Virus record (IMG/VR): IMGVR_UViG_3300044974_000943
Length of the DNA: 64,000 nt
Direction: 5' to 3' (one strand)
From: a virus
Every line of letters starts with the position of its first letter. Position 1 is the first letter of the stretch. Below, piece after piece: positions 36,848-38,052 of this stretch. The translations under genes were made by a program, and so were the position numbers. The notes beneath the pieces are model-generated. The model was not told the DNA's origin. It did no database searches and worked only from the letters and a program-made list of their open reading frames with translations.

Positions 36848-36928
36848 TTTTAGTATTTACAACATACTGTTATATTTTACTTTTCGCCTTTGCTTTGTTA
36901 ATATCCTGTGGTGATGGTTGAGTTTTAT

Positions 36929-37001
36929 ATTAGCAGTACTACCATTGTACTTACCTCGCCATGATAAAGGCAAGGATTGGATTTGAACCAACATCGCTAA
37001 T
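36929..37001 (-). ncRNA. circularly permuted tRNA-like domain 2 (open at the anticodon loop)
   Basis: ATTAGC-GAT-[GTTGG TTCAAAT CCAAT]-CCTTGCC-T-linker TTATCAT-GGCGAGG-TA-[AGTAC AATGGTA GTACT]-GCTAAT. Confidence 0.8.
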
Positions 37002-37086
37002 TGTTTACCATCAAACTTCGACGCAAAGAAAAAGGTTTGATAATGAATTTGGAGCAATAACTTCAATTTCACTTTTAGATTGAGCC

Positions 37087-37179
37087 ACACAACTTCGGGT
37101 TTTTAATCCGAATGCGTCTACCAGTTCCGCCAACTCCCGTTAAATCGGGAATCCTAGAGTCGAACTAGGAATGTTGTGT
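37087..37179 (-). ncRNA. circularly permuted Leu-type tRNA-like domain 1 (open at the variable arm)
   Basis: ACACAAC-ATT-[CCTAG TTCGACT CTAGG]-ATTCCCG-A-linker TTTAA-CGGGAGT-TG-GCGGAACTGGTAGACGC-A-TTCGG(ATTAAAAAC)CCGAA-GTTGTGT. Confidence 0.85.
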
Positions 37180-37256
37180 TTTGATAAGCTTTAACTTACG
37201 CTCTTTAATTAATATACTCGACCCACATACTATCCCGCATCTACCTAAAGACAGAT

Positions 37257-37283
37257 AAAAAAAGCGCTCCCGAAGGAACGCTC
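37257..37283 (-). terminator. intrinsic terminator after the 254-aa gene
   Basis: AGCGTTCC-TTCG-GGAGCGCT followed by a T run. Confidence 0.8.
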
Positions 37284-37287
37284 TCTC

Positions 37288-38052
37288 TTATTGCAACGGT
37301 GCAGTCAGATAATCCGTAATATCTTTTCCGATTTTAAACGGAATCACCTCAATGGCGTTCGCACCTTCCCTTGCTACTACAACAGCCTCTAGAAGCTTCT
37401 GAGCGCGACTGACGAGTGCTTGCTTGGTAGTTTGGTAAATCGCACCACTATAGCTGATTTGCTCCCACACACCTTCATTGATATCTTGGCTGTACTCTTT
37501 GACTTGAGCAGGATGTTTGTCGGTCAACGTACCTTCAATGACCTTCCAATCAGTGATTTTCTTGGTCTTGTTAGTGCGTCGAACTTCAGATTCGTACAAA
37601 CCAGTGTTGGGGTCAATGCTCCACTTTTCTGCGCTGTCGAGAACAGGCAATGAATCAAAGAATGTAACGATGTCCGTTAGCTGCTTCTCAAGAAATAGCA
37701 AGCTCGAAACAGGAACATTCTCAGCGATTGTAGTACCATTAACCACGATGTTACCAACTGCGGCTTGGTTTGTCTTGTCAAGAGTAGTAATTGTATCAAA
37801 CAATTCAACTACCAAAGAAGTGAAAGCTGTAACTTGGTCTTTCACATTAGTTTGTGCCAGTTTCGATTCGGGAGGATACACATAACCATCTTCAGCGTTA
37901 GGGCGATAAGTCTTGCTCAGTCCACCAAACAGGTCACGCTTTTGAATTGTTTTATAGATTTCGGTCTTCGCCTTGCTGACGCGAGATTTTACTCCTTCAG
38001 AAATAGCAAGCAATTGATGTAAAAGAAGACCAGATGTAGTCGATTTAGCCAT
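37288..38052 (-). CDS. uncharacterised protein (LHQLLAISEG / SKTYRP..EDG..YPPES / LLFLEKQL / FFDSLPVLD motifs), linked to the tRNA-like RNA
   Basis: Long well-formed ORF; motif pattern recalls a bacterial/phage DUF family with no known function. Confidence 0.75.
   Translation of the reverse strand: MAKSTTSGLLLHQLLAISEGVKSRVSKAKTEIYKTIQKRDLFGGLSKTYRPNAEDGYVYPPESKLAQTNVKDQVTAFTSLVVELFDTITTLDKTNQAAVGNIVVNGTTIAENVPVSSLLFLEKQLTDIVTFFDSLPVLDSAEKWSIDPNTGLYESEVRRTNKTKKITDWKVIEGTLTDKHPAQVKEYSQDINEGVWEQISYSGAIYQTTKQALVSRAQKLLEAVVVAREGANAIEVIPFKIGKDITDYLTAPLQ

Follow-up and report, generated by a model that had tools for sequence, protein, structure and literature searches.

A DUF7873 gene and an adjacent twin tRNA-like RNA in phages and bacteria point to an RNA-protein machine built on tRNA mimicry

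Results

The locus and its neighbourhood

The window analyzed here is a stretch of 64,000 nucleotides from the 142-kb record IMGVR_UViG_3300044974_000943, which derives from a Pseudanabaena phage of the Pam2/PA-SR01 type. On its minus strand, to which all coordinates below refer, lies a gene (37288..38052) for a protein of 254 aa with its intrinsic terminator (37257..37288), and behind it an RNA of ~385 nt carrying two circularly permuted tRNA domains. A first-pass annotation made from the letters alone had placed an ORF, a terminator, a -10 box, two domains and a final hairpin here, all of which we recovered at the minus-strand positions claimed.

The surroundings hold further features. At 35147-35610 (-), 1.2 kb from the twin RNA, there is a permuted two-piece tmRNA whose T loop carries a group-I-like insert of 226 nt (35337-35562, -); once the insert is removed in silico, ARAGORN recognizes a permuted tmRNA whose tag has 17 residues, the last three being VAV. 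A relative (locus L004) has an intron-less tmRNA gene. The accessible portion of PMC11915505 names standard, intron and permuted tmRNA forms, the combination of intron and permutation not being among them there. The ORF-poor ~770 nt at 39040-39810 (-), with two T-loop hairpins near the 3' end, are a candidate large ncRNA that is partly conserved in related phages (70–90%), has no Rfam match and folds no better than its shuffles (z -0.75). In relatives, one coiled-coil gene directly follows the RNA; here (36213-36796, -) its start seems to be replaced by an unrelated 119-aa ORF (36437-36796), and the remainder is a 75-aa tail matching phrog_9325.

The DUF7873 protein

The 254-aa product shares 95–97% identity with proteins of Pseudanabaena phages Pam2 and PA-SR01 and is covered over its full length by Pfam DUF7873 (PF25283, E 1.6e-86). 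Sequence searches against PHROGs, PADLOC, NCBIfam and the PDB gave no significant match, and there was none to the PADLOC profiles of anti-phage defence systems. The family comprises 2,714 clusters at 50% identity, from at least 593 prokaryotic species and 90 GenBank phage records. Hundreds of bacteria carry the gene on their chromosomes, and in soil bacteria and cyanobacteria it occurs as a stand-alone module, its bacterial spread being patchy (6–8% of sampled genomes).

The predicted monomer (pLDDT 92) is made of long helices with a protruding beta-hairpin (residues 158–198). Its top structural match was DIP1984 (3KDQ; Foldseek probability 0.97, E 0.064), a middling one (VIA Z 7.9, rmsd 8.3, 148 aligned residues), and neither Pfam nor NCBIfam gave a DIP1984/DUF6847 profile match for the protein. 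The weak Foldseek rows for TolC, Cas7 and Pur-alpha were rejected as noise. The structure search returned no fold of known function, which does not imply a novel fold, and no recognisable effector domain was found by Pfam or structure searches. Predicted as four copies, the protein obtained a homo-oligomer score of 0.64 against 0.00 for the best control, with contact agreement of at least 58% and pLDDT of at least 72 in the oligomer runs; in the calibration, which was not a four-copy one, 20 of 30 solved pairs attained the homo-oligomer mark, as did 1 of 23 single chains. DUF7873 is predicted on these models to self-associate, which lends support to a presumed binding of the RNA.

Architecture of the RNA

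The RNA has a putative promoter of its own, a -10-like box (37211..37216, TATATT; TATACT in Pam2) recognized by consensus match only. The 5' strand of a closing helix, P1 (GAGCG, 37199..37203), pairs with 37052-37056; P1 is conserved and its co-variation is weak (4/8 vs 1.6 expected). A single-stranded 5' tract of YUNARN hexamers (37180..37198) leads into domain 1 (37087..37179), a permuted tRNA-Leu-like fold entered through a helix (37173-37179/37087-37093) and running through T arm (37153-37169), acceptor 3' strand (37146-37152), A73 and linker (37140-37145), acceptor 5' strand (37133-37139), D arm (37114-37130) and a lineage-specific extra hairpin (37094-37112). Beyond a middle hexamer tract (37035..37084), which includes the 3' strand of P1, comes the domain-2 stalk (36880..37034), with helices 37028-37034/36880-36885, 37023-37028/36888-36893 and 37007-37013/36912-36918, a conserved internal loop (37017-37022/36897-36903) and a hexamer tract (36918-36929). 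Domain 2 (36930..37000) is a permuted class-I tRNA fold entered through the anticodon stem, with the same order of T arm (36976-36992), acceptor 3' strand (36969-36975), U73 and linker (36961-36968), acceptor 5' strand (36954-36960) and D arm (36935-36951). RNase P sites are predicted at 37139 and 36960. The RNA ends in a 3' terminal hairpin (36819..36847), the loop of which (36830-36836) contains the triplet GG-N (GG-A in the source phage); this triplet pairs with positions 73–75 of domain 2.

The minimum-energy fold of 36810-37210 contains both cloverleaves, and none of 100 shuffles was equally stable (z = -5.0). In a module scan of the whole 142-kb genome, a score of 16 was reached only by domains 1 and 2. 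The first-pass annotation had asserted that standard finders would miss the element, and the unmodified sequence was indeed empty in both ARAGORN and Rfam. After re-permutation ARAGORN calls both domains as tRNAs, for which domain 1 needed no change beyond a tetraloop across its open variable arm and domain 2 an added anticodon loop; homologues re-permuted with added loops gave tRNA calls in 45/52 and 51/52 cases. The claim of two tRNA folds in permuted order is borne out by the fold and by these calls.

Some details needed amending. The linkers, described earlier as 5–7 nt, are of 6 and 8 nt with the discriminator counted. The 9-nt "anticodon loop" of the domain 1 hairpin and the entry through a variable arm do exist, but they are confined to the source phage and its nearest relative among five Pam2-like phages aligned, being absent from the other three; in most homologues the anticodon stem is the entry to both domains. 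The spacer motifs described as purine-rich are likewise present and turn out to be the YUNARN repeats with their 6-nt period.

Gene and RNA occur together

With a scanner written for T arm, acceptor hairpin and D arm, applied to the 900 nt downstream of each gene, modules were found behind 81 of 90 phage and 75 of 80 bacterial genes. For a broader linkage set a distant clade was added and the proteins were dereplicated at 70% identity to 120 genes; 104 of these had a strict module downstream, as against 1/120 in the antisense control. Linkage by falling protein-identity bin was 6/7, 57/62, 19/24 and 22/27, the last bin being below 32% identity. About nine of the 16 scanner misses have, by eye, degenerate or long-linker modules; some seven DUF7873 genes of the 120 are without an adjacent RNA. 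True exceptions include the Lak phages and a Microcoleus phage; Lak-B5, this Microcoleus phage and two MAGs were also devoid of M1- or M2-type patterns in a genome-wide search.

The Chloroflexota supply a view of the association irrespective of position. DUF7873 is present in 16 of 201 genomes, and the domain-1 pattern, searched blind to gene position, was found in exactly those 16 and in none of the other 185. In eight carriers (six Herpetosiphon-clade genomes and two other lineages) the RNA is unlinked to the gene, and each of the three unlinked RNAs examined in detail has both domains and a -10 box of its own. Given that six of the 16 carriers are one clade, the independent count is nearer ten; that the same genomes carry gene and RNA, half of them unlinked, indicates a functional pair rather than mere adjacency. 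The three stand-alone twin RNAs far from the gene are L307 (Herpetosiphon, G004:C16:59300-59900), L308 and L309, which make simple systems for the study of action in trans.

Of 15 cyanobacterial genes 14 have a module next to them, the exception (L191) being a truncated gene with no RNA. One cyanobacterial clade (L178–L183) has a degenerate domain 2 T loop, the RNA of L183 being cut off after the domain-2 linker, and the RNA at L314 (G194:C86), in a cyanobacterial genome with no DUF7873 match, is missing the 5' hexamer arm and is probably a remnant. Both modules of L106 lie upstream of the gene, not downstream.

The distant clade mostly retains one domain-2-type module, often CCA-encoding; distant phage loci such as L009, L193, L199, L201 and L210 have this single module and have kept the 3' dock described below, and at several distant phage loci the CCA of the linker is base-paired to a UGG immediately ahead of G1. 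Near the DUF7873-RNA loci there is no conserved third gene. tRNA genes are found at 50 of 106 viral loci. In the Rhodococcus phage NiceHouse (L170) the RNA and a tRNA-Lys have a Band-7-like gene behind them, Band-7 not being conserved at other loci.

The conserved protein–RNA pair that the first-pass annotation had put forward as a candidate thus has modules behind 104 of 120 homologues and complete co-occurrence in the Chloroflexota (16/16). Across phages and bacteria gene and RNA are almost always together, which points to an undescribed RNA–protein machine based on tRNA mimicry.

tRNA-like features of the two domains

The acceptor is fully paired (7/7) in 62 of 66 domain-1 and 124 of 128 domain-2 modules, but the scanner selects paired acceptor and T stems and their pairing rates are therefore not independent evidence. 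Other features were free of this selection. The Levitt pair 15:48, not selected by the scanner, has a mutual information of 0.79 against 0.14 for the next best, and co-variation of the stalk helix P5 emerged unselected in the same kind of scan. The check proposed at the outset, for permuted modules downstream of homologous genes and for co-variation, has in these respects come out positive.

Domain 1 has A73 in 55 of 66 modules and A15:U48 in 50 of 52. Among 272 tRNAs from these loci, its type of D arm is found in tRNA-Leu only (11/11, mostly short-variable-arm forms), which upholds the earlier description of domain 1 as Leu-like. A73, A14 and A15:U48 are identity elements of E. coli tRNA-Leu (PMC6614811), and leucylation does not need the anticodon arm (PMC9976931). 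The discriminator of domain 2 is not fixed (U73 in 77 modules, G73 in 31, A73 in 13 and C73 in 7). G3.U70 is rare, with 1/66 in domain-1 and 7/128 in domain-2 modules.

CCA stands at the canonical register in 19 of 66 domain-1 and 65 of 128 domain-2 modules, and U or C precedes the acceptor at position -1 in 102 of 128 domain-2 modules. Across the family the linkers range from 4 to ~60 nt and are often hairpins. Two-piece tmRNA had been invoked as the precedent for processing, and the 7-bp acceptors and registered CCA are compatible with cleavage by RNase P and CCA addition; a closer precedent, however, is the YrlA Y RNA. That of M. smegmatis, the sole tested YrlA with a closed 7-bp acceptor, was cut by RNase P and gained CCA (Chen et al., PMC4201824), whereas most YrlA RNAs escape cleavage and serve, in closed form, as tethers (PMC4201824, 10.1101/312249).

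The stems change quickly: in a comparison based on five near-identical genomes, the domain-2 acceptor is only 41% identical among the phages, below the identity of third codon positions (62–73% in 9 of 10 pairs), with hexamer tracts at 92–93%.

A dock for the domain 2 end in the 3' hairpin

The terminal hairpin was chosen without regard to its loop, and 18 of 113 hairpins have no match to the loop expression. The loop consensus is N-G-G-N-(U/C)-A, and in 91 of 95 RNAs the base after GG can pair with the domain 2 discriminator, the pair being Watson-Crick in 73 and G.U in 18. Shuffled assignments gave a Watson-Crick mean of 38.7 (sd 3.7) with a maximum of 55 in 20,000, compared with the 73 observed. 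On a protein tree of 91 rows, from which the mis-picked hairpin or GG rows L025, L010, L241 and L084 were left out, loop base and discriminator change 20 times each, all 20 jointly; independent contrasts between the two agree in 8/8 (p = 0.008). Held-out RNAs pair in 8/8, including one C73:G case. In the source phage itself U73 goes with GG-A, and in its nearest relative, whose protein is identical, G73 goes with GG-C.

Pairing of the dock with the domain 1 discriminator was considered and rejected, no such pairing being seen. The base before GG shows no co-variation with A76, and we consequently describe the dock as 2–3 bp; some loops pair 73–74 only. Positions 74–75 of domain 2 are encoded as pyrimidines in 122 of 128 modules, so that a kissing-loop dock would be possible without cleavage. 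Three close kin of the source phage encode A75 yet retain GG. Contacts of this type are GGU:RCC in the L15 loop of RNase P and UGGN:NCCA in the T-box antiterminator.

Hexamer repeats in the RNA and in the gene leader

YUNAR motifs in single strands at 6-nt spacing amount to 63 pairs against 2.0 after shuffling. Reading the hexamers as codons was rejected: Phe-type codons make up 60 of 282, the rate expected from independent bases. Across P1 the register of the hexamers is displaced by one (spacing peak 19). The leader of the DUF7873 gene (38053..38085) also has YUNAR-type hexamers, 12 nt apart, a possible autoregulatory site. Such hexamers stand in tandem ahead of the start codon in 21 of 119 DUF7873 genes, compared with 3.1 ± 1.7 in shuffles and 1.3% of control ORFs, and are mostly a phage trait (1/14 bacterial). 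Since the same hexamers occur in the RNA and in the gene leader, the sequences suggest that DUF7873 binds them and represses its own message. That the YU-NAR repeats, which match Leu/Phe anticodon-loop sequences, are bait for anticodon nucleases is speculation.

Discussion

A proposed mechanism and its alternatives

Our preferred reading, which we hold at about even chances as a whole, is a ribonucleoprotein of two components by which the host is shown tRNA shapes, namely a processed, protein-coated tRNA-end decoy or sentinel. Its parts differ in firmness. It is highly probable, judging from the sequence patterns, that gene and RNA are interdependent, that the RNA presents two L-shaped, anticodon-less tRNA domains on helical stalks, and that the GG-N loop of the 3' hairpin forms base pairs with N73-C74(-C75) of domain 2, either in cis or from one molecule to another. 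DUF7873 dimers would then, quite likely, bind the single-stranded YUNARN repeats, with the leader repeats limiting their own translation. We also lean, with somewhat less assurance, towards a third step in which host RNase P would open both 7-bp acceptor loops and the ends would be trimmed and CCA-completed to give a three-piece RNA, the domain 2 end capped by the dock and the Leu-like end of domain 1 free and chargeable by LeuRS. Of the free 3' ends suggested initially, only that of domain 1 would remain so, that of domain 2 being docked on the 3' hairpin. The last step is the weakest and only tentatively proposed: the particle may serve as decoy or sentinel for readers of the tRNA elbow and 3' end during infection or stress, candidate targets being tRNA-end-modifying toxins, synthetases and uncharged-tRNA sensors. 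We favour such a role because of the phage enrichment, the placement in tRNA clusters, the patchy bacterial spread and the fast-changing stems. The presence of the gene on the chromosomes of hundreds of bacteria implies that phage counter-defence alone does not explain its distribution. The more specific idea of a decoy for anticodon nucleases has become weak, given that the family is generally without anticodon loops.

The RNA could instead work uncut, as a closed-loop scaffold or tether in the manner of Ro60-Y RNA, in which the domain 2 acceptor loop would kiss the 3' hairpin, closing a frame that is rigid or multimeric, and the elbows of the tRNA folds would recruit a nuclease, ligase or ribosome to DUF7873. 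The encoded pyrimidines at 74–75, the closed state of most YrlA RNAs and the long, often hairpin-forming linkers speak for this; acceptors of exactly 7 bp, CCA in register in half of the domain-2 modules, the prevalent U/C at -1, the kin that encode A75 and keep GG, and the want of a conserved third gene nearby speak against it, and we consider it unlikely. The discriminator specificity of the dock, the Leu identity set of domain 1 and the existence of a stand-alone module in soil bacteria and cyanobacteria would suit a sensor of aminoacylation state, whose dock works as a T-box antiterminator or RNase P L15 loop and in which charging sets the fold and switches DUF7873 oligomerisation or output upon starvation or infection. 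The dock, however, stops short of A76 and need not exclude an amino acid, the identity of the domain-2 acceptor is not fixed and DUF7873 has no recognisable effector domain; such a sensor seems to us improbable to a similar degree. A related formulation, a ribonucleoprotein of a new kind whose multi-piece RNA has two processed 3' ends, one Leu-chargeable and the other in a built-in anti-CCA dock, in which charging controls the DUF7873 oligomer or a non-ribosomal aminoacyl transfer, we rate as doubtful, if marginally less so.

The remaining possibilities are far less probable. A dock that leaves A76 free and two differently specified tRNA-like ends on one scaffold might be taken for an aminoacyl- or peptidyl-transfer particle, its GG loop holding the CCA end like the ribosomal P loop and the second charged domain acting as acceptor or donor, but a large distant clade retains only domain 2 and the dock, and no catalytic signature was identified; we give this very little credence. 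Comparably slight, and largely refuted, is the notion of permuted tRNA genes that yield decoding tRNAs, or of a tmRNA-like RNA with the hexamer tracts as reading frame. ARAGORN does call the re-permuted modules tRNAs, and YUN-ARN would read as Leu/Phe-Lys/Arg/Asn/Ser codons; most members, however, are without an anticodon loop and none is conserved, G3.U70 is rare, the hexamers carry no codon-level signal and shift register across P1, and the phage clade has a separate tmRNA. As two adjacent tRNA genes yield a T arm followed by a D arm, and many phage loci lie in tRNA clusters, the modules could also be imagined as relics of tandem tRNA genes or integration scars travelling with the gene. This least probable reading of all is refuted by co-variation: the acceptor hairpins are compensated, tertiary contacts co-vary and a long-range dock is kept, besides the co-occurrence of gene and RNA when unlinked.

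Comparison with known systems

The closest relatives in form of the decoy or sentinel particle proposed here are the YrlA RNAs (Rfam RF02553), which share the order of T arm, loop-closed acceptor and D arm, the lack of an anticodon loop, the co-variation of the Levitt pair and the location beside the gene of a partner protein. The partner here is DUF7873 and not a TROVE ring, two domains are joined in one RNA, the acceptor is fixed at 7 bp while the D and T stems, near-invariant in YrlA, are variable, and hexamer tracts and a 3' hairpin dock belong to the DUF7873 RNA. No TROVE/Ro60 gene was found in the 142-kb phage genome or in 24 of 38 carrier genomes. RF02553 had no gathering-threshold match in the window and 20 homologous loci, and within the element itself no match even at E values of up to 10. 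The Ro-binding motif GNCGAAN(0-1)G was seen in 6 of 52 5' arms (90 nt scanned), compared with 28 of 52 for the P1 motif. Membership of the Y RNAs was rejected on these three counts (Ro60, Ro-binding motif and Rfam), the topology being common with YrlA.

Compared with two-piece tmRNA-SmpB (PMC11915505), the RNA has complete D arms and an unrelated protein partner, with neither G3.U70 nor a reading frame for a tag; tmRNA membership was rejected for want of a tag frame, of an ARAGORN or Rfam tmRNA call and of a codon signal in the tracts. A circularly permuted tRNA gene was likewise rejected, the anticodon stem continuing into the scaffold and the extra hairpin being lineage-specific. With T-boxes and the RNase P L15 loop the RNA has in common a GG-N that pairs with discriminator and CC, the discriminator co-varying; here, however, dock and tRNA-like end are in one RNA, the contact is a terminal loop of 2–3 bp, and there is no A76 pair, no downstream operon and no catalytic core. 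A T-box riboswitch was rejected, with no Rfam match and no conserved downstream gene. DIP1984/DUF6847 (3KDQ), the best structural match of DUF7873, is shorter (152 aa), and nine DUF6847 loci examined had no twin tRNA-mimic RNA. A predicted tRNA-like ncRNA with a non-Ro protein is the b7a-tRNA with its Band-7 protein (Burroughs and Aravind 2016, per 10.1101/312249). It differs in being described as similar to an authentic tRNA and as RtcB-linked (10.1101/312249), neither Band-7 nor RtcB being conserved at DUF7873 loci.

In the literature searched, phage papers included and subscription journals outside its coverage, no description of a DUF7873-RNA system was found. On comparative sequence evidence the system is real and conserved, and it is apparently undescribed; its module has a precedent in YrlA, and the system as a whole has none in that literature. 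A large, functionally unassigned protein family would thereby be joined to a partner RNA that is invisible to ARAGORN and Rfam. The system is accessible in cultured Pam2, PA-SR01 and Gordonia/Arthrobacter phages, in Streptomyces and in Acaryochloris marina, and the co-variation names the bases to mutate. To our knowledge, tmRNA-SmpB and Y RNA-Ro60 are the only established bacterial tRNA-mimic particles; a third such particle, one whose protein is unrelated and whose RNA docks a CCA end internally, would therefore widen the range of tRNA mimicry in phage-host biology.
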